A stretch of DNA of 64,000 nt from an uncultured Bdellovibrionales bacterium (GTDB taxonomy: Bacteria; Bdellovibrionota; Bdellovibrionia; Bdellovibrionales; JAMPXM01), in contig CAYONZ010000015.1 in NCBI GenBank assembly GCA_964405465.1, positions 3,721 through 67,720 on the forward strand. Reading direction: 5' to 3'. A program made the position numbers and the translations under genes. Positions 27,772-61,733 of this stretch are shown here, piece after piece. The notes beneath the pieces are model-generated. The model did not search any database and was not told the origin of the DNA. It saw nothing but the letters and a program-made list of their open reading frames with translations. Each line of letters starts with the position of its first letter. The stretch's first letter is position 1.

Positions 27772-30232
27772 TTTCTACTCCTACCAATTCAAAATCGACT
27801 TTGCCTGCCTCAGGGTCGGCAGCCACCACTCGCACCTTCAAAATGTCACCCAATGAAAATGATTGTCCAGTACGTTTGCCCACCAGTCGCAAGTTTTGCT
27901 GATCAAATTCAAAACGATCATTGCCAAGTCTTTCAATCTTGATCAGTCCATCAACATCATAGGCGCGAAGTTGAACAAAGATACCAAACTTCGTGACCGA
28001 ACTGACCATACCCTCAAACTCACTTCCTACAAATTGCTTGATGAACCTCGCTTTTTTTATTGAAATCAATTGCCTCTCGGCCTTTGCTGATCTCTGTTCA
28101 CAAGCGCTTAACATTACACCTGCGGTTTCCAGCTCTTCGATGCGAAGCTTGTCTCTGTTGTATTTTGGGTACAAAACACTTTTGGTCAACCGATGGACGA
28201 TTAAATCTGGGTATCGCCGAATCGGAGAAGTAAAATGTGCGTAGTGAGAAAATCCCAATCCAAAGTGACCTACGTTCTCTGGACTATATTTCGCCTGATT
28301 CATTGATCGAAGTGTTAAAATATTCAATATCGTAGCTTCTGGTTTTCCTGCAAACGACTCAAGTGCTCGAGTGATTTTCTTTTGCAACTTGCCACCCTCA
28401 AGACTTCTTGGCCCCCCAAAATTAAAGAGAAAGCGCTCGAGAGATTTGAGATTCTCATCCATTGGTGGTTCATGAACACGATAAAGAGCAGGGACCTGCT
28501 TTTCATCCAAAAATTCAGCCACAGAAATATTGGCTGCCAACATTAACTCCTCGATCAGACGATGCGCGAATAGCCGTTCTGTCTTGATGATATCAGTTGT
28601 GTTTCCTGATGGATCAACGACAACTTGGGTTTCTGGAATTTCAAGATCAAGTGAACCCTCTCGAAATCTTTTTGCCATCAGGATTTTTGCCAAACCTGCG
28701 GCAGCGCGAATATGCTCGGCCACATGTTTGATTTTTTCGGGTGGATTTCCATCAATCGCCTCTTGTGCCTCTCCATATGTCACTCGCGCCTTTGACTCCA
28801 TCACAGCTTCGTAAAACTTCTTGCTTTGAATTTCTCCCTCAAAGCTGATTTGCATTTCACAAACAAAGCAAAGGCGAACGACATGGGGTTTGAGCGAACA
28901 CAGTTCATTACTCAATTCCTCTGGTAACATCGGAACCACATAGTTTGGAAAATAAGTGCTCGTACCTCGCTCGAAAGCTTCTATGTCTAACGCTGTCTCT
29001 GCTATGACATAGTGACTGACATCTGCAATGGCTACCCAGAGTTTGAAGCCACTCGGAGTTTGCTCCACATAAATGGCATCGTCAAAATCACGCGCCGTTG
29101 CTCCGTCAATCGTTATCAAACTTTTTTCTCTGAGGTCCACTCGTCCGGCTATGTCTTCTGGCCTGACCTCCGTCCCCCATTTTCGGGCATCACGAAGAGC
29201 ATTTTGGGAAAACTCATGTGGGATATGATGGTGAAATATCATGCGTTTCACATCGTTAATCGGATCATCGGCGTCACCCAAAATCTGCACAACACGTCCG
29301 GTAAAATCGTCCGTCTCACTCGGATAGGTCAGCACATCCACTGCAACCATATCACCCTCTTTAGCTCCACCACTATCGGCAGCGGCAATGCGGAGGTCAG
29401 CTCCCCATCCCCGCCCCTCATCCAAAATCACACCGTATTTCAAGTCGACAGGAAGATACCGACCGACGATGCGCTGATGTGCTCGACTGATCACTCGCGT
29501 GATTTCTCCAGCTAATCTGTCCTGGGAATCTTTTTTATAAACACGGACCTCAACCTTGTCGTTTGTCATTACCGCAGACATATACTGGCGAGGAACATAA
29601 ACGTCCGGATAGGCCTTATCATCACAGAGTAAGAAACCAAAACCATCCGGATGGCGTTTAATCGTCCCGATCAACAAGTCTTTACGCCCCGCCTGTGGCT
29701 TTTCTGCACTCGGTTTCACCGGCATTTGATATTTTCCTGCGCTTCGCCGAGGGGACTCCGTCCCCTGCTTTGGGGACGGAGTCCCCCTTGGGGAAGTGGA
29801 GGCGGAAGAACTTTTTGATACTCCCCTTGAATTCTGATTCTCATGATTTTCACGGTATTTCCCACCGCTTTTTCGTTTTGATTTGCGACCGACTAAATCC
29901 TCTTCTTTTCGCGACACTTGGCGATCATCTTTTGTCGTACTCTTCTGCGATCGATTTTTTTTCGATGTTTTCTTATAAGTCTTTCCACTTCCCACTTCGG
30001 ACTTTGCTTTTTCTTCGGAGGTTCTCGTTAGCCCAAAGCTTGTCTGATTTTTTCTTGGCTCGGTCTTTCCGCTTCCACCAAAAAGACTAGAGAGACTTCG
30101 CGACGAAGACGCTTTGATCTGTAAACCACTCCGTCCCACTGACTTTTCAGCCCTTGAAACGATTTCAGATTTACTATTTGACCCGCCGGCCGATTCATTA
30201 CGAGACTTTTGTTTTTTTCTGTTATTTCTCAT
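27653..30232 (-). CDS. rnr: ribonuclease R with a roughly 200-aa Ser/Lys/Arg-rich N-terminal extension
   Basis: CSD (HPDGFGFL), RNB core and C-terminal S1 (GMVSSVTKFGIFVQL) followed by a basic tail. The ORF is open to 30322, so the start is uncertain. Confidence 0.9.
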   Translation of the reverse strand: MRNNRKKQKSRNESAGGSNSKSEIVSRAEKSVGRSGLQIKASSSRSLSSLFGGSGKTEPRKNQTSFGLTRTSEEKAKSEVGSGKTYKKTSKKNRSQKSTTKDDRQVSRKEEDLVGRKSKRKSGGKYRENHENQNSRGVSKSSSASTSPRGTPSPKQGTESPRRSAGKYQMPVKPSAEKPQAGRKDLLIGTIKRHPDGFGFLLCDDKAYPDVYVPRQYMSAVMTNDKVEVRVYKKDSQDRLAGEITRVISRAHQRIVGRYLPVDLKYGVILDEGRGWGADLRIAAADSGGAKEGDMVAVDVLTYPSETDDFTGRVVQILGDADDPINDVKRMIFHHHIPHEFSQNALRDARKWGTEVRPEDIAGRVDLREKSLITIDGATARDFDDAIYVEQTPSGFKLWVAIADVSHYVIAETALDIEAFERGTSTYFPNYVVPMLPEELSNELCSLKPHVVRLCFVCEMQISFEGEIQSKKFYEAVMESKARVTYGEAQEAIDGNPPEKIKHVAEHIRAAAGLAKILMAKRFREGSLDLEIPETQVVVDPSGNTTDIIKTERLFAHRLIEELMLAANISVAEFLDEKQVPALYRVHEPPMDENLKSLERFLFNFGGPRSLEGGKLQKKITRALESFAGKPEATILNILTLRSMNQAKYSPENVGHFGLGFSHYAHFTSPIRRYPDLIVHRLTKSVLYPKYNRDKLRIEELETAGVMLSACEQRSAKAERQLISIKKARFIKQFVGSEFEGMVSSVTKFGIFVQLRAYDVDGLIKIERLGNDRFEFDQQNLRLVGKRTGQSFSLGDILKVRVVAADPEAGKVDFELVGVEIESSKGSDENRKYVQKRGKTENNRGRVRKERVSKRRRKN
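29168..29177 (-). repeat. GGGGACGGAG motif copy (exact)
   Basis: CTCCGTCCCC on the + strand. Inside rnr; the sense strand reads W-G-T-E-V. Confidence 0.9.
29751..29786. repeat. perfect 15-bp inverted repeat made of two motif copies (GGGGACTCCGTCCCC-tgcttt-GGGGACGGAGTCCCC)
   Basis: Read directly. Motif copies at 29756-29765 and 29772-29781. It lies inside the rnr N-terminal extension (codons R-G-T-P-S-P-K-Q-G-T-E-S-P). Confidence 0.95.
30129..30138 (-). repeat. GGGGACGGAG motif, 9/10 copy
   Basis: CTCCGTCCCa on the + strand. In the rnr N-terminal extension (V-G-R-S-G). Confidence 0.6.
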
Positions 30233-34824: not shown

Positions 34825-35179
34825 TTAAAACGCACCCGCTCTTCCCTTATTATTTCGATGGCCAGCACCACACACCAAGATCCCAAATACAATTAAATCA
34901 TCACTATGTCGGATATAGGAAACCGAATAATTCCTTGGATTCCTGTGTACCAAATCCCAAAAGGTCCGATTTGGATGCCCCAGGTTACTACCAGAACTGC
35001 CACTCGAAATGCGAAAGGTACATCCCGATCTTGAATTCTAATCGACTTGTCAATGACTAGGTTTTTCCCAAAAAACCCAGCCAGAATCTTGAAAAGAATA
35101 TACCTACGCTGTTAGCATCAGACGATTATTTCTGCATGAAAGTTTTAAAGTCGAGTACTTTCCAAACCCACAAAGCATT

Positions 35180-35208: not shown

Positions 35209-36049
35209 TAATTGGGGCCGGGGACGGAGACTTGAGCAGAAAATAAATACGGTCGCAATTCGGATGATTCAGACGACCAACTTGTCTTTAATCAGATTTC
35301 AACGTTGTCCCCGAATTGCACGATTCGACCACATGAGAATATCGAGGACACAACAACTTCACCCTTTTTCCGCTAGCACACATATGTACTGGAAATGCCA
35401 CAATCACGAATACTATCTCCAAAAGAACTCAATAAAAGATCTTTACATAAAATGCATAAATGAATCACTAAATCGAAAAAGCTCATATCACTCTAAAATC
35501 ACCATTTCCTCCTTCTGCGTAATGAGTAACCATTTTCACCAAATCGCTTCATATAGAAATTCATCTATTCACCTTTCCAATCACATGCGATACAGCCAGG
35601 GGTTATTTGGCGCTCGTTACAATCGCATGAATAGTCGAGCTGGAAAGGTTTCGATCGGACGACCAAAGACTCCGCTTATTCAAAATAGCACCCATGAGAT
35701 GAAAGTTCATTTATACATCGAAGCAAATCCAATTAGAGCAGGCATATGTAAAATACAGGATCTTAAATATTTCAAACATTGCTCATTTAGATTCTATGCC
35801 TTTGGAATTGAAGATCAAATCACAAAAATTCTGACGATACCTCAATGGTACCTAGACTTAGGAAGAACTTCTTTGGAAAGACAGAAAAAATATAGGGAAC
35901 TTTTTTTGGCAGCTCTCAAGTCTTACGCATTTTCCCCGGCAAAATACCTAAGGTTTCAATTGCCGTTTATTGGTTCACAAAAATGGATAAAATCTCAGCA
36001 TTGCCGTCTAGCAAAAATAAAAAAGTTAAATTCGCTCAACGACTCCTAG
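35204..36049 (+). CDS. REP-associated tyrosine transposase (RAYT) / IS200-like Y1 HUH transposase
   Basis: HUH motif in VMSNHFHQIA and the catalytic-Tyr helix HLYIEANPIRAGICK. The spacing and the LFGARYNRMNSRAGKV segment fit the Y1_Tnp (COG1943) family. There is no tnpB partner. The start is uncertain (35204, 35264 or 35333). Confidence 0.75.
   Translation: MSNWGRGRRLEQKINTVAIRMIQTTNLSLIRFQRCPRIARFDHMRISRTQQLHPFSASTHMYWKCHNHEYYLQKNSIKDLYIKCINESLNRKSSYHSKITISSFCVMSNHFHQIASYRNSSIHLSNHMRYSQGLFGARYNRMNSRAGKVSIGRPKTPLIQNSTHEMKVHLYIEANPIRAGICKIQDLKYFKHCSFRFYAFGIEDQITKILTIPQWYLDLGRTSLERQKKYRELFLAALKSYAFSPAKYLRFQLPFIGSQKWIKSQHCRLAKIKKLNSLNDS
35220..35229 (+). repeat. GGGGACGGAG motif copy (exact) at the 5' edge of the RAYT ORF
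   Basis: Context GGGGCCGGGGACGGAGAC. It lies upstream of the internal Met codons at 35264 and 35333 that may be the real start. Confidence 0.9.
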
Positions 36050-36052: not shown

Positions 36053-36700
36053 CTATTTACCTTTATCGATAATTCGCCCCTCATACATATAAAACACATC
36101 TCCGCCAAATACTTCGACATCTCCTGGGTCATGTGTAATCAGCATTGTTGGAATTTTATTTCTCTCAATCAGTGATTTTATCAATGATCTGGCCTCTGCT
36201 TTATTTTCAGCATCCAACGCTGAAAATGGCTCGTCCAACAGCAATATCCTTGGCTGTCTAGCAATCGCTCTTGCTATTGCGACTCGCTGTTTTTCACCTC
36301 CAGACAATTCTCCACCCTTTCGATCGGCACATCCACTCAAACGCAATTGATCTATTAAACTCTGAACACGGAGGCTCCGTCCCTTTTTGTCGCCTCCGAC
36401 TAAAGTCAGGGGAAATTCTATATTTTCTCTGACTGTCATATGTGGAAATATTTCTAAACTCTGAAAAACTACACCAATATTTCTTTCCAAATGACTAATT
36501 TTTAAAAGGTCCGTCCCCTTCCATTCCCAAGTCCATTCTTGCTGTGGTATTTCCAAACCAATTAGAGAACGAAAAAGAGTTGTCTTGCCGGATCCCGAAG
36601 GTCCCAGCAAACAAGTAGCTCCAATATCTGACAAAAACAATTCGGGTACATTCAAACAGAAACTACCCAACCTAACCTTAAGGTTTCTTATAACCGACAT
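36053..36700 (-). CDS. thiQ: thiamine-type ABC transporter ATP-binding protein
   Basis: Walker A GPSGSGKTT, signature LSGGEKQRV and Walker B LLLDEPFSALD. Last gene of the thiB-thiP-thiQ arrangement. Confidence 0.7.
   Translation of the reverse strand: MSVIRNLKVRLGSFCLNVPELFLSDIGATCLLGPSGSGKTTLFRSLIGLEIPQQEWTWEWKGTDLLKISHLERNIGVVFQSLEIFPHMTVRENIEFPLTLVGGDKKGRSLRVQSLIDQLRLSGCADRKGGELSGGEKQRVAIARAIARQPRILLLDEPFSALDAENKAEARSLIKSLIERNKIPTMLITHDPGDVEVFGGDVFYMYEGRIIDKGK
36375..36384 (-). repeat. GGGGACGGAG motif, 9/10 copy
   Basis: CTCCGTCCCt on the + strand. In thiQ (K-G-R-S-L). Confidence 0.6.
36509..36518 (-). repeat. GGGGACGGAG motif, 9/10 copy
   Basis: gTCCGTCCCC on the + strand. In thiQ (K-G-T-D-L). 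Confidence 0.6.
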
Positions 36701-38141
36701 TTCCCATCCCTTTGAACAAAAAGAACGTGACTAACCCCCCACATACTAGAACCCATACCTCAGCAGTTGCCACCGACAGTCGATAGCTTTCCATCAAACC
36801 TGCCACTTGAAGCGATAATGTTAGTGGCTTCGCAAGTACCATCTTTGACAAGGAAATATCCCCCCAGGCCCAAAAACTTGCAAATGCAGCTATCCCACAG
36901 CAACGACTCCAGGCTTGCGGCAATACAATTCTTGTAAGAATTGTTAGGGGCCCTCCCCCCATCGTGCGCACTAACTGAACCTGTGAATTTATTTGGCCTA
37001 AAAAAGAATCCAAATAAAATCGATAGAGAAACGGAAAAAAAAGTACGCTTAGACCTATAATTAGACTGAATTTGCCAGTTAGATTGAAGCTGATCATTGC
37101 AAAGCCAACTACAACCATACTAGGTGCCAAGTGCCCTAAAAGAACTTTTCGAACTGCTCCGGTTGGGAATACGTAAAGTATCAATATGCAAAGCCCCAAG
37201 GAGGCTAGTCCAACTCCCATTCCTATAAAAATCGATCCAATGAGTCCATCGAGGATTCCGTCGAGTATGGCTGGGTTGCTCAAAATTAATTGAACTCCGT
37301 CCCCAAAACCAACGCTTAGGCCAACGAATAGACAACTCACTGGCAGAAGTACCGGAACCAAACCAAGTGGACTTGAAAGAAGACTCAGACCCATGCCTTT
37401 GGGACGTCCCTCTATCTGAAAATGAACACGTCTTTGCGTAAGCATCAAAGAAAGTCCAAGAACCAATACGCTCTGTATGAAAGAATACGACGCAGCCAGC
37501 CCCCAATTTTGGTCCACCCGAAGTTTTTCATAAATCAATACTTCAAGCGTTGTCGCCCCCCTTCCCCCGAGAATCAAAGGGATTGAGAAGCTAGTCAAAC
37601 ATATCGCAAATATCGACAATCCAATTATCCTCACGTCCTTCTCAATGTTGCCATACACAACCCTTCGAAAAAACGTCCACTTCCCTGCTCCCATCACCTC
37701 AGCCACTGCGGAATACCTAGCAACTACCGAAACTAGCAAATCCTCCAGGGCAACAGCCACTATTCCGACGTTTATCAGAGAATGGACAACCACTATGGAT
37801 GCCAGCGGAGCAATATTTCTTGGTGCCAAATTCAAATAGGCCAAAATCAATAGAAGCGATGGAAAAACATTAGGAACTATCGACAGAAATCGAGCTGCTG
37901 ATACCAAACCAGACGAGTAATGTCGACTCAGATAAATCAACCCATAAGCACCCAATAAACCGAAAGTCATCGTAACGAATGCGCTTAAAAACGATTGGGC
38001 CAACGTAAAACCCAACGCTCTCCAAAAATCCTGGCCAACTAAAAAACTGCTTACATCGAAGTGAAGGCCTAAAACTAAATAAGGAAAAATCAGAAATGTG
38101 AGGAGTATCAGCAGAATAAATACTCGAAAGGGATCCCTCAT
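36678..38141 (-). CDS. thiP: thiamine-type ABC transporter permease (duplicated domain)
   Basis: 487-aa two-module permease between the ThiB-like binding protein and the ATPase. Confidence 0.7.
   Translation of the reverse strand: MRDPFRVFILLILLTFLIFPYLVLGLHFDVSSFLVGQDFWRALGFTLAQSFLSAFVTMTFGLLGAYGLIYLSRHYSSGLVSAARFLSIVPNVFPSLLLILAYLNLAPRNIAPLASIVVVHSLINVGIVAVALEDLLVSVVARYSAVAEVMGAGKWTFFRRVVYGNIEKDVRIIGLSIFAICLTSFSIPLILGGRGATTLEVLIYEKLRVDQNWGLAASYSFIQSVLVLGLSLMLTQRRVHFQIEGRPKGMGLSLLSSPLGLVPVLLPVSCLFVGLSVGFGDGVQLILSNPAILDGILDGLIGSIFIGMGVGLASLGLCILILYVFPTGAVRKVLLGHLAPSMVVVGFAMISFNLTGKFSLIIGLSVLFFPFLYRFYLDSFLGQINSQVQLVRTMGGGPLTILTRIVLPQAWSRCCGIAAFASFWAWGDISLSKMVLAKPLTLSLQVAGLMESYRLSVATAEVWVLVCGGLVTFFLFKGMGNVGYKKP
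37295..37304 (-). repeat. GGGGACGGAG motif copy (exact)
   Basis: In thiP (F-G-D-G-V-Q). Confidence 0.9.
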
Positions 38142-38168
38142 CGTTTTAACTCTAGTTGGAATTTTTGC

Positions 38169-39182
38169 TCAAAACCCATCAATCCGTTTCCATATCTCCA
38201 ACATCTCATGTTTTCGATCGCCCAACCTAAGGTTAATTGAACCTTCAATTAATTTGAGCTCTGGAATTTTGTCGAACTCCGTCCCCTTTTTAACAGAATC
38301 TACAACAGGCAGCATATAGTTCTTCTTCATGATTATAGACTGAGACTCTGGTTCTAGTAGGAAACTCAAAAACAACAGTGCAGCTTCTTTCTGTAAACTG
38401 CCCGCAGGAACCCCCGCAAACTCAACCTGAATTGGATGGCCCTCTTTGAATACTGAAGCCCGATACTCGGACTTCCCTTCCTCAATCAAATGATACAACG
38501 GTGAGGTTAAATACGACATCACCAATTTTGCATGCCCAGATTGAAATAAGCCGTAGGCCTGGGACCAAGAACTCGAAATGCTTTGAATATTTGGAGCCAA
38601 TTGGGTTAAAAAACCACGAGCTCCGTCCCCCTTTTCACCCATTGGAAAGCCTTTTTGAGCAAAAACCCAGAAGAGAAACTGTTGTCCCGGTGAACTAATC
38701 CTGGGGTCCTGCAAAGCAATCTGACCCCTAAATCGAGAACTCAATAAATCATCCATCGACTCCGGTGGAACAATTTCTTTATCCCGATAAATAAAAGCCA
38801 TCGGAGCCCAATCAAATGCGTAAAACTCATCACGGGCAAATCGTGCAGTTGTTCCCTGAAGCCTCTCCCACTTAAACTGTTTCGCGGCTTCTTCCACCGA
38901 AAACTGATCCAAACCCACCACCACATCAGCTTTCCGAATCTTTAGCCTTTCCAAGAGCAGTGCTCCGTCCCCACCATCCTGAAAACTAACGGCGATTTGG
39001 TATTTCTCCTCAAATCGCTTTGCCAACTCCGGACCCGGCCCCCATGAATTCATAAATGACCCATAGGTCAGGACCTCGATCGATTTCCCCACAGAGCTCC
39101 GTCCCCGTGCCATGTTCCAATAGATCGCAATGCCCACCAAAATCGACACCATTGTAACCAACAGAATTACAACCCTCTTCAT
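38169..39182 (-). CDS. thiB: thiamine ABC transporter substrate-binding protein
   Basis: VLTYGSFMNSWGPGP, QDPRISSPG, SWSQAYGLF and SYLTSPLYHLIEE match ThiB/TbpA as I recall it. Confidence 0.8.
   Translation of the reverse strand: MKRVVILLVTMVSILVGIAIYWNMARGRSSVGKSIEVLTYGSFMNSWGPGPELAKRFEEKYQIAVSFQDGGDGALLLERLKIRKADVVVGLDQFSVEEAAKQFKWERLQGTTARFARDEFYAFDWAPMAFIYRDKEIVPPESMDDLLSSRFRGQIALQDPRISSPGQQFLFWVFAQKGFPMGEKGDGARGFLTQLAPNIQSISSSWSQAYGLFQSGHAKLVMSYLTSPLYHLIEEGKSEYRASVFKEGHPIQVEFAGVPAGSLQKEAALLFLSFLLEPESQSIIMKKNYMLPVVDSVKKGTEFDKIPELKLIEGSINLRLGDRKHEMLEIWKRIDGF
38277..38286 (-). repeat. GGGGACGGAG motif copy (exact)
   Basis: In thiB (K-G-T-E-F). Confidence 0.9.
38621..38630 (-). repeat. GGGGACGGAG motif copy (exact)
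   Basis: In thiB (K-G-D-G-A). Part of the 13-mer GAGCTCCGTCCCC. Confidence 0.9.
38963..38972 (-). repeat. GGGGACGGAG motif copy (exact)
   Basis: In thiB (G-G-D-G-A-L). Confidence 0.9.
39097..39106 (-). repeat. GGGGACGGAG motif copy (exact)
   Basis: In thiB (R-G-R-S-S). Part of the 13-mer GAGCTCCGTCCCC. Confidence 0.9.
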
Positions 39183-39186
39183 TCAA

Positions 39187-39666
39187 CTACCACCAAATGC
39201 CTCGATGGCGTTTATAAAAGTAATAATCTAGCCCAAGACACCGACCTGCCCCCATCCATCCCAAAGTAAGGTGGACCATCAAAACAAAAGTTGTTTGTAA
39301 ATCCGTTGTAGTCTGAACCATCAATAACAAAACACACGCCAGCATTCCCAACATCGCAAACGGACGCACCAAATACCCAAGAATATACGCCAAGCCCATG
39401 ACGATTTGAAAAATCACAAAGATATGTGCAAATACCTGCCAGTTCGGTATCACAACATTCTCCAAGAAAAATCGCATAGCTTCGGGGACAGCCGATTGCG
39501 GTAAAAAATTTCTAATATCCTCTGCTAAATAGGCATGCTCCAAATATCCACTTTTAAGATGCGAAATACCCAAGTTAAAATAATAGTAGCCTAAAAAAAT
39601 ACGCAGAAATGAAATCGGTAAAAAATGCCCAACGTATTTGATGCTCTCAACGAATGCAATAATCAT
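39187..39666 (-). CDS. small integral membrane protein (DoxX-like, tentative)
   Basis: Four hydrophobic helices. AAGGAGA lies about 10 nt before the ATG at 39666. The family call is a guess. Confidence 0.4.
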   Translation of the reverse strand: MIIAFVESIKYVGHFLPISFLRIFLGYYYFNLGISHLKSGYLEHAYLAEDIRNFLPQSAVPEAMRFFLENVVIPNWQVFAHIFVIFQIVMGLAYILGYLVRPFAMLGMLACVLLLMVQTTTDLQTTFVLMVHLTLGWMGAGRCLGLDYYFYKRHRGIWW

Positions 39667-39709
39667 AAAACTCATTCTCCTTGAGGGAACTACCCTGGTC
39701 AACTCTGCC

Positions 39710-40447
39710 TCAGAGTTTTTTCATACACAATTCATTTAGAAAACAAGAGCCACACTGAGGGCTTCGTGCCTTACATACCTTTCTTCCATGCCAGATCAAT
39801 TGATGGGAAAACGCAATCCACTTTTCCTGCGGCAACAACTCCATGATTTCCCTTTCGATTTTTACTGGATCATCTTCCTTAGTGAGTCCCATCCTCTGAC
39901 ACAGTCTCCTGACATGAGTATCCACCACTACTCCAGAGGGAATTCCAAATGCCACACCTAAAACTACATTCGCTGTCTTTCTACCCACACCGGCCAACTC
40001 AACCAGCTTGTCTAAACTTTTGGGAATCTCACCGTCATATTTCTCAACCAAAGTCTGGCAGCATCGCTGAATATTTTTAGCCTTGTTCTTATAAAAACCA
40101 GTCGATCGAATAATTTCTTCCAGATTTTTTAACGGAGCCCTGCTCAATGAAAATGCATCCGGGTACTCCTCAAACAAAATTGGAGTCACCATATTAACAC
40201 GCTCATCCGTACACTGCGCCGACAAAATTGTCGCCACCAAAAGCTCCAGCGTACTCCTGTGGTTTAATGCACACTCCGCTTCCGGATAATATTTTTCTAA
40301 CAAGGCCACAGCTTTCGCGATCCGATTCGTCTTTTCTCCTACAGATTCACCTCTAGAAAATGAGGTCGCTCGCTCACCCGGCTTAGTGCTCTTGCCCGAC
40401 AGCTTGTGGTTCTTTTTTGAATTCTGAAGTTTTCTCTTTTTCTTCAT
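39710..40447 (-). CDS. nth: endonuclease III with a basic N-terminal extension
   Basis: HhH (LVELAGVGRKTANVVL) and the 4Fe-4S cluster loop CKARSPQCGSCFLNELC. Confidence 0.9.
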   Translation of the reverse strand: MKKKRKLQNSKKNHKLSGKSTKPGERATSFSRGESVGEKTNRIAKAVALLEKYYPEAECALNHRSTLELLVATILSAQCTDERVNMVTPILFEEYPDAFSLSRAPLKNLEEIIRSTGFYKNKAKNIQRCCQTLVEKYDGEIPKSLDKLVELAGVGRKTANVVLGVAFGIPSGVVVDTHVRRLCQRMGLTKEDDPVKIEREIMELLPQEKWIAFSHQLIWHGRKVCKARSPQCGSCFLNELCMKKL

Positions 40448-40606
40448 TTTGATGTTGTTCCCCTTGAGATTTCACACTGTCCCTAAGTGTTAGGACTAAA
40501 GTCAAGTCATCCAGACTCGCACTGGGTCTGGATTTAAAGAGACCATACATTTTTATCTCATTTCCTGCTCAGTATTTTCGTACACTAATCTTATAAGGAG
40601 GGCCCC

Positions 40607-41695
40607 ATGGAAGGACCACGTCCACCACAGGATCACGAAATTAATGGTGTATTTTCGTTTCTCAATACGCACCTCCGTCCCCAAGAAAAATGGTCGATCA
40701 CGGCAGAATATCCGATCGCTTTTGCTTCGGGAAACTATGGCAACATGAGGATAATTAAAGAAAACAACGAGGTTCTCTCACACGCTGTAATGCGCCCCTT
40801 GATCGTAAAGTCCACCTGCGGCCTCTTTAAAGTTGGAGCGATCGGAAGTGTCGTCACCTCAACAGACCATCGCAACCAAGGTCTCAGTCGCCAAATTCTT
40901 GAGAGCTGTGTTTCCGCTGCGCGAGATCACGGTTGTGATATCGCAATCCTTTGGACCAACCTCTACGATTTCTATCGAAAGCTCGGTTTTGAACTCGCGG
41001 GTTCAGAGGTAAGTCTTGTAATTGATCGAGAGCTCAAGCTCGAAACCAATTACAAAATCGTTGAGGGAACCAAAGTTGATCCCGAAGCAATTCACAAGCT
41101 TTTTCTAAGTCACACAGTCTGTTCACTTCGAAATCTCGATGAAACTCGGCGCTACATGCAAATTCCCAATACACGGATGTACACGGCATGGGATGCTAAT
41201 GGATCCATCAAAGCTTTTGCCGTAGAGGGAAAGGGCGCTGATCTCGACGGTTACATTCATGAGTGGGCAGGATCAGTGAGCGCCCTCATGTCCCTGTTTG
41301 ACCATATTCGAAAAGCTCAGAAACGAAATATTACGGTCATTTCCCCTAGGCACTCGATCAATTTAATTCAGCAGCTAAAAGCACAGGGGATTCGCTCACA
41401 CGAGGGATTTTTGGGAATGGTAAAGATTCTCAACCACAATAATCTCTTCAGCAAACTGAAGAGATATGCCCGAGCTATGGGTGTCGGCGAGCTGGTCCTC
41501 GAAAAACAAGGCGACTACTATTACTTTGGGTCCGAAGACAATATTTTCAAAACAGACTCAGATGTGGATCTCATTCGGTTGATTTTCGGTCCCCAACGCC
41601 CTTCAGAGATTCACAAATTCGATCCTTCAACAACAAAGATGTTTGAGCAGATTTTTCCGATCGATATGTGGATTTGGGGTTGGGACTCAATATGA
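40607..41695 (+). CDS. GNAT acetyltransferase with an Eis-like C-terminal domain (tentative)
   Basis: GNAT core (HRNQGLSRQILESCV..YRKLGFE) plus a roughly 200-aa C-terminal extension. Confidence 0.55.
   Translation: MEGPRPPQDHEINGVFSFLNTHLRPQEKWSITAEYPIAFASGNYGNMRIIKENNEVLSHAVMRPLIVKSTCGLFKVGAIGSVVTSTDHRNQGLSRQILESCVSAARDHGCDIAILWTNLYDFYRKLGFELAGSEVSLVIDRELKLETNYKIVEGTKVDPEAIHKLFLSHTVCSLRNLDETRRYMQIPNTRMYTAWDANGSIKAFAVEGKGADLDGYIHEWAGSVSALMSLFDHIRKAQKRNITVISPRHSINLIQQLKAQGIRSHEGFLGMVKILNHNNLFSKLKRYARAMGVGELVLEKQGDYYYFGSEDNIFKTDSDVDLIRLIFGPQRPSEIHKFDPSTTKMFEQIFPIDMWIWGWDSI
40673..40682 (-). repeat. GGGGACGGAG motif copy (exact)
   Basis: CTCCGTCCCC on the sense strand of the GNAT gene (H-L-R-P-Q). 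Confidence 0.9.
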
Positions 41696-42609
41696 AGAGT
41701 GAATCCTCCGCAAACTTCCGACCTGGTAAAACCATCTCTAGGCAAACCAATCTGACTCGAGCTCCGTCCCCTGCAAAAATGGTCGGAGAGATGGTCGAAT
41801 GGGTCGGACTGCGGATAACTCTATTGTCAGCACTTCTGCTCTGTGCGTGCGTAAAACACGAACAACCCAAACAAGACTTTGGACCAGAATCTGACCCGCA
41901 GGAAATCCTCAACACAATCAAAAAAGTTAGATCTTCAAGCAATCCATTTTCGATGAAAGTCGGCGAATTTGTCCACCTTGAGGAGAACCAGACCGTGGCC
42001 AACACTGTTCACTCCATCACTGCCGACACCGGAATTACTGTGACCAATCGTGAAGAAAACGATGTCGCCGTCCGATATTCGTTCACCCAACGGCGATTCA
42101 CATACTATGAGCAAAAGCCCCGAGAGGTCGCTACAGAACTTCCTCCCCTTGTCCTAAAAAAGCCGCAGAAGTCTTCCTCCAGTATCGCAGACATGATTTT
42201 CTCTTTTGGTATTTCAGTAACTCCGTCCCCGAACCCCTTGGCTCCGTCCCCTTTGTCGGGACCCCAGACCCACCTCACTATGAGCGCGTCCGAGCCCTCT
42301 CAAGTAACCTTTCACAATTTTAAATTTTCTGAACAAACCGAACCAGCCCCTGACCTGGTCGCCCAACGCCCAGACTGCCTCAATATCGAAGGTTGTAAGT
42401 ACAAGGTCTCGCGCATTTCATTCGATGAAGTCGCTTGGATCAACAACCAACCCGAACTCACACAATACTCCTATGCATTCAGCGACCGCGTTCCCTACAT
42501 CGCCAGTCAACTCGAAAACTGTGCCACTCGCATGGTCGAACTCTCCAGTGGCAGCAAAGCTCCCGTTAAGTTCTGTAGTGTTGTTCGAGACTTCAAGTCA
42601 GGCAACTGA
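41692..42609 (+). CDS. putative lipoprotein
   Basis: ATGA start/stop overlap with the upstream gene. Lipobox-like LLSALLLCAC. No family recognised. Confidence 0.5.
   Translation: MKSESSANFRPGKTISRQTNLTRAPSPAKMVGEMVEWVGLRITLLSALLLCACVKHEQPKQDFGPESDPQEILNTIKKVRSSSNPFSMKVGEFVHLEENQTVANTVHSITADTGITVTNREENDVAVRYSFTQRRFTYYEQKPREVATELPPLVLKKPQKSSSSIADMIFSFGISVTPSPNPLAPSPLSGPQTHLTMSASEPSQVTFHNFKFSEQTEPAPDLVAQRPDCLNIEGCKYKVSRISFDEVAWINNQPELTQYSYAFSDRVPYIASQLENCATRMVELSSGSKAPVKFCSVVRDFKSGN
41762..41771 (-). repeat. GGGGACGGAG motif copy (exact)
   Basis: C-rich strand in the sense of the lipoprotein gene (A-P-S-P). Part of the 13-mer GAGCTCCGTCCCC. Confidence 0.9.
42221..42230 (-). repeat. GGGGACGGAG motif copy (exact)
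   Basis: In the lipoprotein gene (T-P-S-P). Direct repeat with the copy 21 bp downstream. Confidence 0.9.
42242..42251 (-). repeat. GGGGACGGAG motif copy (exact)
   Basis: In the lipoprotein gene (A-P-S-P). Confidence 0.9.
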
Positions 42610-45359: not shown

Positions 45360-46029
45360 GTGTCATATGAATCTTTCCGACAAACTCCACCCCAACACCG
45401 GTTTCTCCCGGCTGCATTTCCGGAGAAATCCAAACTGCCTTACAAGGCATAACATAGGTTTTATTGACGTCGTCAAGTGTAACGGTCACAGTCATCTGGT
45501 CTCCGATTTTTACTTCGACCACTTCTGGAATCAAAACGAAGGCCCCCCCCTTGGAGAGATTCAGCATTGTTGAATGGGTAAGCCCTGACTTTCCAGAAAA
45601 CGAAACCTTTGCCTCTTGTTCGGTAGCAAATCTTTTGTGAATTCGTTTTGCAATCTTGTCTTCAAACAATACCTTGCGCATCAATCCTATCAGATCCCGA
45701 ATCTGATAGGGCTTTTCTAAAAAAAAGACGTTTTCTAGGGACCGTAGAATTGTTCTCGCCTCTAGCGAGTCCGCTTTGGACAATACCAAAATCGGACCGC
45801 GGTAGCCTATCTTACGCGTCTCAACAATTGCCTGGTGAAAGACTTCGTTGAAAATGTTGGAGTTCAAAACCACGATACTCACATCTTTATCCACAGATTG
45901 GGGCAATAGCTGGGGACGGACCCCCACAAAAGCCAAAGCTTCTCCACCTCGCATGAGGGGCTCAACTTTTCTCTTTAAAAGGTGATTCTCTTCTTCGGTT
46001 TGACTTACCAAAAAAATCTTTGTCATCAC
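45328..46029 (-). CDS. receiver-like domain / PilZ domain protein
   Basis: C-terminal KRIHKRF and NLSKGGAF resemble the PilZ RxxxR and DxSxxG motifs. The N-terminal half has a CheY-like pattern. Confidence 0.55.
   Translation of the reverse strand: MMTKIFLVSQTEEENHLLKRKVEPLMRGGEALAFVGVRPQLLPQSVDKDVSIVVLNSNIFNEVFHQAIVETRKIGYRGPILVLSKADSLEARTILRSLENVFFLEKPYQIRDLIGLMRKVLFEDKIAKRIHKRFATEQEAKVSFSGKSGLTHSTMLNLSKGGAFVLIPEVVEVKIGDQMTVTVTLDDVNKTYVMPCKAVWISPEMQPGETGVGVEFVGKIHMTRAKRGDHGAA
45912..45921 (+). repeat. GGGGACGGAG motif, 9/10 copy
   Basis: GGGGACGGAc. In the REC/PilZ gene (sense strand V-R-P-Q). Confidence 0.6.
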
Positions 46030-46092
46030 TGTCTTATCGGCCTATCCGGGCCTCACTAAACAAGACAATCGCCCCACTTGGACCATAGCCCT

Positions 46093-46127
46093 GATTGTCC
46101 GAGCTATGACAAACCTCTCGGACAATC
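46093..46127. repeat. perfect 11-bp inverted repeat GATTGTCCGAG-N13-CTCGGACAATC
   Basis: Read directly in the 415-bp intergenic region upstream of nadE. Confidence 0.85.
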
Positions 46128-46171
46128 AATTTCACTCCGGCGAAATCCTCCCCCTTAACTCAAACTGGGAC

Positions 46172-46195
46172 CTCCAAATTTGGAGCTCCGTCCCC
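46172..46195. repeat. 14-bp palindrome CTCCAAATTTGGAG abutting an exact motif copy (CTCCGTCCCC at 46186-46195)
   Basis: Read directly. Intergenic. Confidence 0.9.
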
Positions 46196-46444
46196 CTTGG
46201 GTAAATTGGATCATGGGCGCAACTTACTAGAATGGTTGAATTAATTTGGAGCAACCAAAGAATTTGTGCGGCACCAGTACTAGTTCTTCAGTCAAGAAAT
46301 GTAGGTTCCATTTTCAATCAAAGACCAACGAGCCCTGGAGACATTTTGAATTCGCAACAGAATATGATCGATAGATTTTTCAACAAATGATAAATTGCCA
46401 CTAGACAATGAGCTTCGAGAATAAAATTAATTCGGAGAAAATAC

Positions 46445-48427
46445 ATGAAATACGTAAAAGTGGCGGCAGGTGTGGTCAACCAGACCCCACTCGACTGGAC
46501 TGGAAACAAGAATCGGATCCTGCAAACCATTGCGCATGCCCAAAAGAGTTCAGCATCGATTCTCTGCCTGCCTGAACTCTGTATTACCGGTTACGGGTGC
46601 GAGGACGCTTTTTTTTCTCCCTTCGTACATGACAAAGCTCTCCAGATATTAAAACAAATTCTGCCCCACACAGTGGGACTCGTGGTCACCCTAGGCTTAC
46701 CCATTTTTCACCAAGGTGCCATTTTCAACACCACGGCCGTCATCGCAAATGGGCAAATTCTCGGGTTCATTCCCAAGAAACAGCTCGCTGGGGACGGAGT
46801 CCACTACGAGAACCGATGGTTTAAGACCTGGCCAAACGATGTCTATGATTCACTCAAGCTCGATGGTTTAGATTACCCATTTGGAGATTTCTTTTTTGAG
46901 ATCGGCGACATCCGAATTGGCCTCGAAATCTGCGAAGAAGCTTGGGTCGCCAAACGCACAGGGGCGCAGCTCGCGCAGAAGGCAACAGACATCATTCTGA
47001 ATCCCAGTGCAAGTCACTTCGCCTTTGGAAAACACGAAGTTCGCAAACGATTTGTCCTCGAGGGCTCGCGAGCTTTTGGCGTGGCATACGTGTACACGAA
47101 TTTGGTAGGCAACGAATCGGGACGAATTATATTTGATGGTGGAGCGCTTATTGCCTCAAATGGTCAGATCGTGCTGCAATCTCCGCGTTTTTCTTTTGCC
47201 GACTCGGCCATTTATACTGCCGTAATTGATGTTGAGATGAATCGAACCAAACGCGCACAGACCGCAAGTTTCACACCTCTGATGGGGACGGACCCCTCGC
47301 TGATTCGAGTACCGTTTTCTTGGCTCGAGTGTAAACCCGAAATTTCTCATGCCGAGGTCCACGCTTGGGAACAAAGTGCTGATATTAAAAATGAAGAATT
47401 CTATCGTGCCGAGGTGCTAGCCCTATTCGACTATTTGAGAAAAAGCCGTTCTTCCGGATTTGCGGTTTCACTCTCTGGCGGAGTGGATTCTGCGGTTTGC
47501 GCTACCCTCGCCGCTAAGTGTTTCGAGTGCGCGGCCAAAGAAATTGGCCTAGATCAATTGAAAACTCGCCTCGCATACATCCCCAAGATCGACCGACACC
47601 TTTCCCTTCAATCCCTGACAAAACAAATGGTCCTGACTCTCTACCAAAGCACCCAAAACAGCTCCAATGACACCCGAAATGCAGCAACAAAAGTTGCTTT
47701 CGAGCTGGGGACGGAGCACCACCAGTGGAACATTGATGGCCTTCTCAAGGAGTATCACTCTCGGGTAGAAACCATTATTGGACGTCCTCTTTCCTGGGCC
47801 ACCGATGACATCGCCTTACAAAATGTCCAAGCTCGAGTGCGATCCCCAGGTGTCTGGATGCTCGCCAATCTCAGGGGTGCACTCTTGTTGGCAACCAGCA
47901 ATCGCAGTGAAGCCGCGGTCGGATACGCAACAATGGACGGCGACACCTCCGGGGGACTGAGCCCGATTGCGGGTGTCGATAAAGCATTTCTGCAAACATG
48001 GATTCGATGGATGGCAGAACACGGGCCAGCGGATGGAAACAAAGTGGCCTCCCTAGCTGAGGTCTATAAAGTGCCGCCCTCAGCCGAGCTCCGTCCCCCA
48101 GAAAAGCATCAAACCGATGAGGCAGATTTGATGCCTTACTCTGTTCTTGATGCTATTGAGCGGGCGTTTATTCGGGATCGCAAAGCACCACTCGAAATTT
48201 TGTCACTATTAAAAATACATTTCCCACAGTTTCCACCAGAGATGCTTCGCAATTGGACGTCTCGCTTTCTTCGACTCTGGGCACAGAATCAGTGGAAGCG
48301 TGAGCGATATGCTCCAGCATTTCACCTTGATGACGAGAGCCTAGACCCCAAAACCTGGTGCAGATTCCCGATATTATCCAATGGATTCATTGATGAAATA
48401 GAGGACATTAAAAATTGGAACCCTTAG
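46445..48427 (+). CDS. nadE: glutamine-dependent NAD+ synthetase
   Basis: N-terminal CN-hydrolase domain (LEICEEAW) and C-terminal NAD synthetase domain with P-loop SLSGGVDSAV. Confidence 0.9.
   Translation: MKYVKVAAGVVNQTPLDWTGNKNRILQTIAHAQKSSASILCLPELCITGYGCEDAFFSPFVHDKALQILKQILPHTVGLVVTLGLPIFHQGAIFNTTAVIANGQILGFIPKKQLAGDGVHYENRWFKTWPNDVYDSLKLDGLDYPFGDFFFEIGDIRIGLEICEEAWVAKRTGAQLAQKATDIILNPSASHFAFGKHEVRKRFVLEGSRAFGVAYVYTNLVGNESGRIIFDGGALIASNGQIVLQSPRFSFADSAIYTAVIDVEMNRTKRAQTASFTPLMGTDPSLIRVPFSWLECKPEISHAEVHAWEQSADIKNEEFYRAEVLALFDYLRKSRSSGFAVSLSGGVDSAVCATLAAKCFECAAKEIGLDQLKTRLAYIPKIDRHLSLQSLTKQMVLTLYQSTQNSSNDTRNAATKVAFELGTEHHQWNIDGLLKEYHSRVETIIGRPLSWATDDIALQNVQARVRSPGVWMLANLRGALLLATSNRSEAAVGYATMDGDTSGGLSPIAGVDKAFLQTWIRWMAEHGPADGNKVASLAEVYKVPPSAELRPPEKHQTDEADLMPYSVLDAIERAFIRDRKAPLEILSLLKIHFPQFPPEMLRNWTSRFLRLWAQNQWKRERYAPAFHLDDESLDPKTWCRFPILSNGFIDEIEDIKNWNP
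46790..46799 (+). repeat. GGGGACGGAG motif copy (exact)
   Basis: In nadE (A-G-D-G-V-H). Confidence 0.9.
47284..47293 (+). repeat. GGGGACGGAG motif, 9/10 copy
   Basis: GGGGACGGAc. In nadE (M-G-T-D-P). Confidence 0.6.
47707..47716 (+). repeat. GGGGACGGAG motif copy (exact)
   Basis: In nadE (L-G-T-E-H). Confidence 0.9.
48089..48098 (-). repeat. GGGGACGGAG motif copy (exact)
   Basis: CTCCGTCCCC in the sense of nadE (E-L-R-P-P). Part of the 13-mer GAGCTCCGTCCCC. Confidence 0.9.
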
Positions 48428-48665
48428 AGTTATACCTGTAGGCGTACAAGGCAATTGTCGCTGTCTCTAGATCACTGGAACACAATGGATCTATACCTCA
48501 ACCTACTGATTGAGTGTCCCGATTTCCACTGCCCAAAGTTTTCACGTTTTTGAGCAGTGTATAAGCCATCGACACTCAGGAAGAAATTCTAGAGCTACAA
48601 AAATTTAGCCATCCACTTTCGAGATGATCATTTTTCTGGCTCCGATTACAGGGTAAGATGCGGCG

Positions 48666-49847
48666 ATGGCGAGAATCTTCAATAGAAAATTCTATTTCGA
48701 GCTAATCTTAAGCGTCCTAATAGGTACACTTTTACCCAAAGTTTCACTGGCAAGAGCAGAATCGATTTCTATCAAGGCAGACCAAGTTGTGTCGCACGTT
48801 AATCGTGTTTGGTATGGACGAATTCATAAAATTCTAGAATTCAGAGTTTTTGATCTCCGACATTGCTCTACATCCTTTCGGCAAATGACTCTCCAGCGTT
48901 TCAATCAAATGAGTCTCGATTCCTCAGACTCGATCGCTCTGACACAGCTTCTTGAGTTCTACCAACATACTCACTCTCCACAAATTGAGATGAACTGCCA
49001 AATGCAACTCGATAAGAACGAAAATCTTTTTTGGAAACATGAGACAAGGGCCTTTAAAATTCCTAAATTAATTTTTCCTATGTCAACAGTACTTCAAGAG
49101 CTCAATCCACATTGCATCTCAAGGCAAGTGCCATCACTCAATGGCAAATATGACTCTAATCCGTGTTTGGCCGCAGACGAAATGATTGGTCGCGGACTTA
49201 TGACCGACCTCGAACTGTGGCATTCCCAAATGTCACAAATCAACACTGAACTTCGAGTTCGATTTTCCGAAAGGACAGACAAAAATCCCTCTATAGATCT
49301 CTATGCGGTATTTCTATCGGCCACTTCCACAAGAGATACGCCTGAAAATCGGGAGCGAGCGATCGCGATGGTGGCAGGGGCACTGGCCTCGGCTCCAAGT
49401 TGGTCGGCCTACTTTGACGGAATCACCGATGTAGTTTGGAGAGACCAAATGAAGGACAGTAGGTATTCATTGTCCCCCCGCGAAATCCAAAAACTCGTGG
49501 AATTCATCCCTGCGCTTCGTTTACAGATCGACGAACTCAGCCAACTTTTCAAGTGGGGACGGAGCAATGTCGAAGGAATGAATTGGCAGGGGATCGACCT
49601 CTCGGATAGCAATCACCACAACATGATGTCCGCATATTTAGCATGCCATTACCGAGAGCGGACGGCACTGACCCATGAATTTCTTCCTAAGCTAATGGGA
49701 CAGATCTACGAAGCAAAAGACTTTGCCTCACACCTTCTTGTCGACAAAGACAGTTGGCCGATTGCCGTCCAAAATTTTACGACAGACACAAATCGCTACT
49801 CCGCTGGCGCCGAATGGGGCTACCGCTTTTGTAAAATGAGGCTTTAG
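48666..49847 (+). CDS. hypothetical secreted protein
   Basis: 393-aa ORF with a signal-peptide-like N-terminus. No family recognised. Confidence 0.45.
   Translation: MARIFNRKFYFELILSVLIGTLLPKVSLARAESISIKADQVVSHVNRVWYGRIHKILEFRVFDLRHCSTSFRQMTLQRFNQMSLDSSDSIALTQLLEFYQHTHSPQIEMNCQMQLDKNENLFWKHETRAFKIPKLIFPMSTVLQELNPHCISRQVPSLNGKYDSNPCLAADEMIGRGLMTDLELWHSQMSQINTELRVRFSERTDKNPSIDLYAVFLSATSTRDTPENRERAIAMVAGALASAPSWSAYFDGITDVVWRDQMKDSRYSLSPREIQKLVEFIPALRLQIDELSQLFKWGRSNVEGMNWQGIDLSDSNHHNMMSAYLACHYRERTALTHEFLPKLMGQIYEAKDFASHLLVDKDSWPIAVQNFTTDTNRYSAGAEWGYRFCKMRL
49555..49564 (+). repeat. GGGGACGGAG motif copy (exact)
   Basis: In the hypothetical gene (K-W-G-R-S-N). Confidence 0.9.
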
Positions 49848-49903
49848 CGGCAACGCCCAAATACTCCAAATTTGTTTGGGCCAACTCGGCTCGATACGAC
49901 CGA

Positions 49904-49940
49904 GGCTCCGTCCCCCGGTCTTTGATTAGGGGACGGAGCC
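49904..49940. repeat. perfect 12-bp inverted repeat GGCTCCGTCCCC-N13-GGGGACGGAGCC (motif doublet)
   Basis: Read directly. Intergenic, between the hypothetical gene and menB. No T-run follows it. Confidence 0.95.
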
Positions 49941-50132
49941 CAGTGATTGCGGGCACAAGAGATCTAAGCCGTGGACCGGGCGCGCGAGGCGTTAGATGGA
50001 ACTGTCCGGGATTCCGGCTACATTTTTTTTTGTAATTCTGCTAAACCCTCAGGCACACTAAGTCGCACCATTTTTCTAATCACCTGCAGGAGGATTCGCG
50101 TGGGCACATCAAAATCAGAAGTTTGGATAAAA

Positions 50133-50933: not shown

Positions 50934-50939
50934 TTTTAA

Positions 50940-54471: not shown

Positions 54472-54522
54472 ACGCCGATTCCTAATTCGGAAAAAAATGA
54501 TTTCACTAAAAAAGAAATTTGC

Positions 54523-57357: not shown

Positions 57358-57546
57358 ATCTTAGCTATCGGGAAAATTCACACATCGCTCAACTCGCCAT
57401 TGGTTGGGTATGCGTTCATTTGATTCAACCCTTGGAACTGGATGACGTTCATATTTGGTTTGAGACTTATCCAGCCCTGCATAACGCATATATAAATAAT
57501 AAATATTTGCAGGCTTTTGGTCCTGAAGGCAAAAGAGTGTGTTAGA

Positions 57547-58368: not shown

Positions 58369-58477
58369 GTCCTGTCTTTTGATTTTTCACTTTAACCTTC
58401 TCGACTGAAGTAGTGAGCACCCAAAGGACAATGCATTTCTAATTTAAATATACTGACTCATTTTATAGTATTAAAGA

Positions 58478-61714: not shown

Positions 61715-61733
61715 CCGAAAAAAGGAACATCAA

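Follow-up and report, generated by a model that had tools for sequence, protein, structure and literature searches.

Group 1 REP-associated tyrosine transposases (RAYTs; REP, repetitive extragenic palindromic sequence) are the largest subclass of the class 2 (RAYT-type) enzymes, and we know of no function and no cognate DNA established for them. The present study deals with a gene that appears to encode such an enzyme in an uncultured Bdellovibrionales bacterium, and with a 10-base word, GGGGACGGAG in its G-rich form, that is scattered around this gene and through the neighbouring thiamine transport operon thiBPQ. The DNA analysed, hereafter the window, is a stretch of 64,000 nt (assembly GCA_964405465.1, contig CAYONZ010000015.1, positions 3,721–67,720 of the forward strand). 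Bdellovibrio was formerly placed in the delta-proteobacteria and has since been reassigned.

The closest described enzymes are those of TnpA-Y1 subclass 2.1, which have about 238 aa and the motifs NH[YF]H and YIELNP or Y[IV]HLNP (PMC6006769, Table 1). The same paper equates this subclass with the terminal inverted repeat-associated tyrosine transposases (TIRYTs) of Di Nocera et al. (PMC3733652) and with the Group 1 RAYTs (PMC5581495), and it describes subclass 2.1 proteins with helix-turn-helix (HTH)-like C-terminal domains (DnaA_C, HTH_23 or HTH_28; PMC6006769). The group is reported to be prevalent in delta-proteobacteria (PMC3733652, PMC6006769, PMC5581495). Inverted repeats, which have GGGGWSAS as their core, stand on both sides of TIRYT genes (PMC3733652); Quentin et al. 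(2018) found no REP-like sequences near subclass 2.1 genes (PMC6006769). A literature search for RAYT together with Bdellovibrio returned nothing relevant.

The copies of the word in thiBPQ had already been noticed in a reading of the DNA without database searches (the sequence-only reading). It took them for an exceptional hotspot of that operon; the transposase gene beside thiQ was absent from it. We consider it probable, at roughly 80%, that the thiBPQ copies are the downstream arm of a local cloud formed by the cognate word of the single-copy HUH/Y1 transposase encoded at 35333–36049.

Results

Association of the word with the transposase gene

The exact word occurs 27 times in the window, and 0.07 copies were expected from dinucleotide shuffles, which is an over-representation of about 400-fold. 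Seven further loci were picked solely because they encode a homologue of the transposase (L141/142, L143/144, L145/146, L147, L148, L149 and L150). All seven carry the exact 10-mer, with protein identities of 34–79%, guanine-plus-cytosine (GC) contents of 34–48% and entirely different neighbour genes in each. It is the top or joint-top 10-mer in L141, L142, L143, L145 and L149. One metagenome locus, L089, was picked by the motif alone in a scan for the inverted pair, whose other matches were for the most part background hairpins of high GC. Its 13.7 kb hold 17 copies, and a homologue is encoded amid them (42% identity, E 9e-50). With the window included, the identical 10-mer stands at nine independent homologue-encoding loci (identity 35–79%, GC 34–50%).

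Neither a transposase homologue nor a copy of the word was found in 17 Bdellovibrionota loci picked through ThiB (L001–L017, about 265 kb), of which L015 and L017 are syntenic with the window. A family profile run over the other fetched loci found the transposase gene in none. The gene itself lies at a synteny break. L015 and L017 keep the order PilZ-Ddl-DJ1-GNAT-DoxX-thiBPQ, and adenosine deaminase then follows thiQ, while L012 keeps DoxX-thiBPQ only; none of these three has a copy of the word. L150, with a transposase 79% identical to that of the window, has the upstream copy and the gene order MFS-transposase-thiQ in common with it. At 34845–35075 the window carries about 230 bases more than the contig of this closest relative, placed between the MFS gene and the sequence that leads up to the transposase gene. 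The top 10-mers of L001–L017 are unrelated to the word and come from a syntenic local cluster of GGGCGGTGCC and from a 48–51 nt tandem repeat. The cluster lies in two Pseudobdellovibrio genomes (L001, 8880–9589; L002, 17329–18029), with five GGGCGGTGCC copies in 700 bp, in syntenic positions and in DNA of 40% GC.

The orientation and density of the copies were pooled over eight transposase loci. Within 500 nt upstream of the gene, the G-rich strand is the sense strand of the gene in ten copies and the reverse in none. Over the first 10 kb downstream, 27 copies have the inverted orientation, as against two that do not. The density peaks next to the gene and drops within 5–15 kb, with 2.5 and 1.5 copies per kb beside it versus about 0.1 per kb at 5–10 kb downstream and beyond 15 kb upstream. 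A copy equivalent to the upstream copy of the window stands 50–250 nt before the gene in L141, L145/L146, L147, L148, L149 and L150. The full arrangement of an upstream sense copy and inverted downstream copies is seen in the window, L145, L147 (downstream copy 9/10), L148 and L149, and the downstream copies of L089 are inverted too. The co-orientation of the thiBPQ copies is therefore explained by the general inversion of downstream copies around the transposase gene.

The GC skew on the sense strand of the transposase gene is negative in four loci and positive in four. Therefore, the polarity follows the gene and not replication, and an orientation tied to replication was rejected. There is a weak hint in the eight loci that long downstream arms occur where the G-rich word would be on the lagging-strand template (three of four such loci, and at most one of the other four). 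The long arms of the window, L089 and L143 go with negative skew, and the positive-skew loci have 0–3 proximal downstream copies; eight loci are a small sample, and skew over 14–20 kb is noisy. In L148 (11088–11290), three downstream copies are each followed by AGGTTTA and merge into a run of ten CCCAGGTTTA repeats.

The transposase

The start of the transposase was set at 35333, giving 238 aa, because its homologues all begin with a conserved MRxSR. Its stop codon lies 4 bp from that of thiQ, and the two genes are convergent. The match to the NCBIfam model REP_Tyr_transpos is weak (E 3.8e-8, 33 bits, below the cut-off of 80). Pfam Y1_Tnp is matched by 17 of 24 homologues, and the window protein itself gave no match to it. 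A sequence search of the PDB with the transposase found nothing, and no homologue was found in a plasmid collection at E 1e-10. The protein contains the motifs NHFH and YIEANP (YIEANPIRAG), and H67, H69, Y128, N132 and P133 are invariant in 24–39 homologues. The HUH metal-binding motif is thus represented by NHFH with the invariant H67 and H69. The class 2 signature, a single catalytic tyrosine in a Y-x-x-x-N-P helix, is present as well, as YIEANP with the invariant Y128, N132 and P133 (signature from PMC6006769). The AlphaFold 2 model has a mean predicted local distance difference test score (pLDDT) of 94.3. Its best Foldseek match is 4ER8, the E. coli TnpA-REP with a REP hairpin (E 3e-6, template modelling (TM) score 0.69 on the target), followed by 22 chains of IS608, ISDra2 and IS200 transposases. 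The C-terminal third is helical in the model, and a Pfam search of the protein and its homologues gave no HTH family match. With 238 aa, NHFH and YIEANP, the protein agrees in length and motifs with subclass 2.1, and the enzyme accordingly fits TnpA-Y1 subclass 2.1, that is, the TIRYTs or Group 1 RAYTs, as judged by its sequence.

The word and its edges

The conserved core is exactly 10 nt long and has a weak 3' YYC extension; the flanks are otherwise unrelated and look random. On the plus strand the thiBPQ copies read CTCCGTCCCC. The word has a palindromic tendency (GGGGACGGAG-CTC...), and a small GGGGAC-GGA-GTCCCC hairpin is completed at 3–4 copies only. In the cloud, 25, 6 and 9 sites match at 10/10, 9/10 and 8/10 positions, versus 0.07, 1.1 and 15.9 expected, so that the match spectrum is bimodal. 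The mismatch is at an end position in five of the six one-off copies. Inside ORFs (open reading frames) with family support or orthologues lie 21 of the 27 exact copies, and the placement is mostly intragenic in L089, L141, L143, L145, L147 and L149 as well. The word stands in both orientations and in all coding frames, giving GDG[AV], xGRS and xGTE in sense and TPSP, LRPQ and SVP in antisense. A peptide repeat was rejected on this ground. None of the tandem arrays of the window involves the motif. Longer conversion tracts templated by the copy at 35220 were not found, and the downstream copies are without its flanks. A literature search for the exact word returned primer coincidences only, and a search for the inverted pair in viral contigs gave three high-GC chance hairpins only.

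Copies in the thiBPQ operon

The host genes have the layout of a thiamine ABC importer, with a binding protein, a fused two-domain permease and an ATPase in one operon. ThiB matches TIGR01254 at 176 bits (cut-off 93), ThiP and ThiQ match their equivalog models below the cut-offs, and JGI and NCBI annotate the orthologues as thiamine transport binding protein. The exact copies begin at 37295 in thiP and at 38277, 38621, 38963 and 39097 in thiB, and two 9/10 copies lie in thiQ (36375, CTCCGTCCCT; 36509, GTCCGTCCCC). These are the seven copies of the sequence-only reading, four in thiB, one in thiP and two near copies in thiQ, each at the position that it gave and with the irregular spacing that it described (134, 786, 982, 344, 342 and 134 bp). 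Its remark that the flanks are unrelated and that no tandem or CRISPR-like array is formed was borne out by the flank comparison and by a check for tandem arrays.

In all seven copies the G-rich strand is the minus strand, which is the sense strand of the three ORFs, and three frames are used (GDG[AV], xGRS and xGTE/D). The proposed rule that the G-rich strand is the mRNA sense strand thus stands for the operon but is local, since the run continues at 40673, 41762, 42221 and 42242, in antisense to plus-strand genes. The orientation follows the transposase gene instead of thiBPQ transcription, and the downstream copies of L143 are antisense in LigA and Dus. The co-orientation had rightly been taken as meaningful; it matches the downstream polarity of the transposase loci. 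The claim of an exceptional hotspot did not hold up. Against a uniform spread of the copies over the window, the operon has P = 0.05–0.11, and inside the motif-rich domain 24666–50382 its density is unremarkable (P = 0.56–0.79). Seven copies in 2.73 kb are also present from 45912, 47284 and 47707 (4, 5 and 6 of them exact), and such numbers elsewhere had been named in advance as what would make the operon ordinary.

An Rfam scan of the window found one tRNA only and no TPP (thiamine pyrophosphate) riboswitch. Premature terminators or RNA elements in thiBPQ were rejected, as terminator-like sites are about as frequent as in shuffled sequence and no copy has one on the sense strand. One terminator-like hairpin, ACGGAG-GCT-CCGT followed by CCCTTTTTGT, is found at 36368–36380 on the plus strand, antisense inside thiQ, where it shares bases with the 9/10 copy at 36375. 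Its position, 319 nt past the stop codon of the transposase, means that transcription of the transposase gene could end there, within the convergent thiQ. Because the proteins align with their orthologues over the full length and no terminator signal stands at the copies, the thiBPQ genes look like intact passive hosts. Nothing suggests that the copies serve transport or its regulation.

Entry of the copies into coding DNA

Alignment of ThiB with its orthologues places the RGRS encoded by one of the copies from 39097 to 38277 in a variable N-terminal linker and the KGTE of another on a conserved GTE. A GDGA copy replaces a DAG that is conserved in the orthologues. The copy at 38621 (GDGA) lies in an insertion of 6 aa (18 nt, FPMGEKGDGARG) that none of the 12 aligned orthologues has (38600–38660, residues about 180–190), and it is the sole thiBPQ copy tied to a length change. 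The ThiP and ThiQ copies are in variable segments without length change, and ThiQ aligns over its full length with orthologues. The LRPQ copy of the GNAT protein is on residues conserved among orthologues. An inverted pair of L143 has its two arms within the GatA coding sequence, and these arms align gap-free to PDB 4wj3. The codons used by the motif are minority choices (GGG 0.17, ACG 0.18, CGG 0.10). These alignments suggest that the copies in coding sequences arose mostly by substitution in place, at the DNA level. One-off copies are few beside 25 perfect ones, yet L150, at 79% identity, already shares the arrangement. Therefore, the copies would be kept or regenerated by an active process. 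Since the flanks are never shared, this process would act on exactly these 10–13 positions.

Layout of the cloud in the window

The positions of the features are collected in Table 1. The exact copies of the downstream arm are the five of thiP and thiB and the four antisense ones beyond them. The arm crosses thiQ, thiP and thiB, then the GNAT gene and the gene for a 313-aa hypothetical protein. The longest run of exact copies in one orientation is ten, taking in the copy at 46186 (P = 0.025 by permutation). The pair at 808/869 represents the sole copies outside the cloud; there is none in 879–24665 or in 50383–64000, and the 23.8-kb gap has P = 1e-4 under a uniform spread. The copy-free flanks hold core genes (flagellins, menFDH, DAHP synthase, ubiE, shikimate genes, oppABC and menBACE).

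A chimeric contig or foreign islands were rejected, as the tetranucleotide correlation between rich and poor parts is 0.95–0.97 and core genes are present in the flanks. A duplicated segment, considered for ORF pairs of equal length (215 and 281 aa), was also rejected; the proteins are unrelated and the second 281-aa ORF is a flagellin. The menaquinone genes of the window are split, with menF/D/H-like genes on the minus strand left of the cloud (6634–10241) and menB/A/C/E on the plus strand at its right edge (49971–54471). The last motif copy (50373) sits in menB. Two flagellin genes (1129–1974 and 2599–3585) lie near each other and share a 229-nt stretch of 72% identity.

Table 1. Features of the transposase locus and of the motif cloud, in window coordinates
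Feature	Positions	Strand	Remarks
TIRYT/RAYT-like HUH-Y1 tyrosine transposase gene	35333–36049	+	238 aa; mechanical ORF start 35204
Upstream ('left') copy, GGGGACGGAG	35220–35229	+	transposase sense strand, 104 nt before the ATG
thiQ-like ABC ATPase gene	36053–36700	-	two 9/10 copies (KGRS, KGTD); convergent with the transposase gene
thiP-like two-domain permease gene	36678–38141	-	one exact copy (GDGV) in the variable inter-domain segment
thiB-like substrate-binding protein gene (ThiB/SfuA family)	38169–39182	-	four exact copies
Downstream arm	36375–42251	-	9 exact copies and, at 36375 and 36509, 2 near ones; orientation opposite to the upstream copy throughout
Whole motif cloud	24666–50382		25.7 kb long, with 25 exact copies and 6 near ones; transposase gene a little to the left of the middle
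Inverted pair, 10-bp stem, 6-nt spacer	29756–29781		RNase R residues 181–189, encodes TPSPKQGTE; N-terminal low-complexity region
Intergenic inverted pair, 13-nt spacer	49906–49938		between the gene for a 393-aa hypothetical protein and menB
Distal intergenic inverted pair, 51-nt spacer	808–878		starts 808 and 869; 34.5 kb from the transposase gene

Discussion

The association with one gene across divergent genomes, and the polarity around it, argue for a word that belongs to the transposase. From analogy and from the co-occurrence, the enzyme may recognise this word on single-stranded DNA. The upstream copy and any inverted downstream copy would then pair into a 10-bp stem, like the terminal inverted repeats of TIRtrons or the hairpins of REPs. 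Because of this need for pairing, the downstream copies would have to be inverted. A process that depends on the enzyme and works preferentially in cis would create or preserve perfect copies near the gene. It might consist of selection or drive on point mutations at the 10–13 positions, as for uptake sequences but local. It might also be a short-patch correction of near-complementary partner sites. Both versions fit the data and are inseparable here.

A more far-reaching proposal is that a domesticated Y1/HUH enzyme writes and maintains its own 10-bp word nearby, correcting near-complementary sites that are paired with an existing copy on single-stranded DNA. This proposal is tentative, and we think it rather doubtful. 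If it were true, a protein-directed, polar, short-patch conversion would take place inside essential coding genes without insertions or deletions. This would amount to local sequence drive of a new kind, and the subclass 2.1 RAYTs would gain their first defined substrate and activity.

Several points weigh against the transposase-centred reading. The binding or cleavage of the word by the enzymes of this clade is putative, drawn from analogy and co-occurrence. To our knowledge, no Y1 chemistry accounts for a 10-bp word written into coding DNA without an insertion or deletion. The stretch covered around each transposase gene is 14–64 kb per genome, and the distribution described here is that within these stretches. 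In the window, copies of both orientations are intermingled more than about 10 kb away from the gene on either side, and the density rises again downstream at 46–50 kb, which is not predicted by a model with a single centre. The downstream side is still dense at 10–15 kb, unlike the pooled decay. In L143 the 1.5 kb before the gene hold no exact copy, and distal pairs exist (the 808/869 pair; L149 at 6.8 kb). L089 has a second dense cluster of eight copies in 0.8 kb (12791–13611) at the contig end, 5.7–6.6 kb upstream of its transposase; it may be another centre beyond that end. Motif-rich loci were also seen in L117 (GC 60%, 11 copies in 9.4 kb), L119 (5 copies in 3 kb), L042 and L133, with no detectable homologue in the few kb retrieved of each. 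Likewise, L097 (Ga0256407_10000453, GC 45%) has ten copies in 14 kb (412–13673) and no homologue in the part retrieved.

Some details of these places may be recorded. The dense stretch of mixed orientation at 45912–50382 covers NadE, the 393-aa hypothetical protein and MenB, 10–15 kb downstream of the transposase gene, and no second transposase or pseudogene was detected in it. In L042 and L133 the 10-mer lies within 16–20 nt tandem units. In L097 it lies in the loop of intergenic palindromes of about 45 nt (ATGGTCCC-A-GGGGACGGAG-TCGA-GGGACCAT); this locus carries ThiW and an Lsa-type ABC-F gene.

The thiBPQ copies had been set beside uptake-sequence genomes. For a DNA uptake sequence (DUS) or uptake signal sequence (USS), a competence receptor would prefer GGGGACGGAG, transformation and recombination would raise its density, and thiBPQ would be an extreme on the local scale. 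In agreement with this, the word is an exact 10-mer, weakly extended on its 3' side, enriched about 400-fold and present about once per kb in the cloud; it uses both orientations and all frames on tolerant or pre-fitting peptides, and inverted pairs follow some genes. However, an even density independent of any gene is not what was found. The core genes of the same window, 37 kb of unchanged tetranucleotide composition, hold no copy; in eight further loci the copies cluster at one gene and flip their orientation across it; the 265 kb of ThiB-selected relatives have none; and the one-off variants are few, unlike in a balance of mutation and drive. No competence genes were recognised among the annotated ORFs of the window. 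An uptake sequence is thus very improbable. A miniature mobile element of the REP/REPIN type or of that of miniature inverted-repeat transposable elements (MITEs), inserted in trans by the RAYT and striking thiBPQ repeatedly, is unlikely. It would account for a RAYT-type gene between inverted repeats, for the dimers and clusters, and for the copy at 38621 in an 18-nt insertion unique to this ThiB. The copies of RNase R and of the 313-aa hypothetical protein are in low-complexity linkers and could be insertions, and intragenic REPs are known (PMC3733652). On the other hand, the unit is only 10–13 nt long with unrelated flanks and nothing co-transported, and 21 of the 27 copies fall within genes. 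An insert of 10 nt would put a gene out of frame, and most copies come without a length change relative to orthologues or to homologues of solved structure (ThiB 38277 and 38963, ThiP, ThiQ, GNAT and the GatA pair of L143).

An array of double-strand binding sites, kept by selection, could serve the C-terminal helical region of the transposase or a host protein, in a nucleoprotein domain or in autoregulation. The sharp 10-bp boundaries and the palindromic tendency are of the expected kind, a copy 50–250 nt upstream of the ATG is in an operator-like place, and subclass 2.1 includes HTH-like C-termini (PMC6006769). Nevertheless, Pfam detects no HTH domain in the window protein, and such an array leaves unexplained both the strict downstream inversion over kilobases and the appearance, by selection, of sites in unrelated genes at each new location of the gene. 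As an account of the whole cloud it has little probability. A double-strand operator is possible for the promoter-proximal copy, with the polar arm unexplained by it. The mirror symmetry of the orientation around the gene is also what machines moving outward from a break would meet. The word might then be a Chi-like polar recombination signal, whose oriented copies halt an exonuclease that starts from nicks or breaks at the transposase gene. Known Chi sites have 5–8 nt and are far less enriched. A Chi of the host would be expected genome-wide and oriented with replication, whereas loci without the gene have no copies, the skew is divided 4:4 and the orientation flips at the gene. This explanation is extremely improbable.

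For the reading preferred here, in which the copies in thiBPQ belong to the cloud of the transposase, the clade offers a precise candidate substrate in a 10-mer that is invariant across proteins of 35–54% identity. It also offers a measurable phenotype in a polar, distance-fading cloud written into neighbouring coding genes, which makes the function of the enzyme directly testable. A practical warning is that a locally extreme density of a short motif can mimic an uptake-sequence genome if a single window is read.

Comparison with known systems

Among the known systems, uptake sequences share with this word the short exact motif, the use of all coding frames, the substitution on tolerant peptides and the inverted pairs (DUS of Neisseria, USS of Pasteurellaceae). 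In contrast, the word is local to one gene and polar, not genome-wide, and we know of no link between it and competence. Transposases of the IS200/IS605 family act by a chemistry of single-stranded DNA and pair DNA elements at the ends. The predicted HUH/Y1 fold is common to both (IS608, ISDra2). However, no subterminal hairpins, no tnpB, no multicopy element and no defined mobile unit are present here, and the neighbours differ in each genome.

The REP systems are closer (E. coli TnpA-REP, 4ER8, PMC3479197; REPIN-RAYT, PMC3116915). They provide the best structural match (TM 0.69), and they too have a single-copy gene between inverted repeats, with inverted doublets. REPs are hairpins of 20–40 nt with a GTAG tag; they are extragenic, number hundreds genome-wide and vary between species. 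The unit found here is a half-stem of 10 nt without a tag, in coding DNA, locally concentrated and identical across distant genomes. Its repeats are for the most part not extragenic, and they do not form hairpins of 20–40 nt that bear GTAG or CGTC at their foot. In contrast to the genome-wide dispersal of REPs, the copies concentrate near the gene within the 14–64 kb read per genome.

The TIRtrons, with their TIRYT genes, are the nearest relatives. The length of about 238 aa, NH[YF]H, a YIELNP-like motif and a low-copy gene between inverted repeats are common to both, and the repeats of TIRtrons are sometimes dimers, clusters or moderately abundant families. GGGGACGG agrees with GGGGWSAS at 7 of 8 positions; position 7 is G and not A in 27 of 27 copies of the window and in every related locus. 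By this comparison the word is a variant of the published core rather than a strict fit to it. The cloud differs from a TIRtron in that an invariant 10-mer is common to proteins only 35–54% identical and lies mostly within genes, apparently by substitution in place. It is also polar and fades with distance, and does not consist of two terminal repeats or a genome-wide family. Therefore, the kind of system is known, as TIRtrons and the GGGGWSAS core have already been published. As far as the literature was searched, what is undescribed is the invariant 10-mer across very divergent members of a Bdellovibrionota clade, its location mostly within neighbouring coding genes by substitution, and the polar cloud that fades away from the transposase gene.

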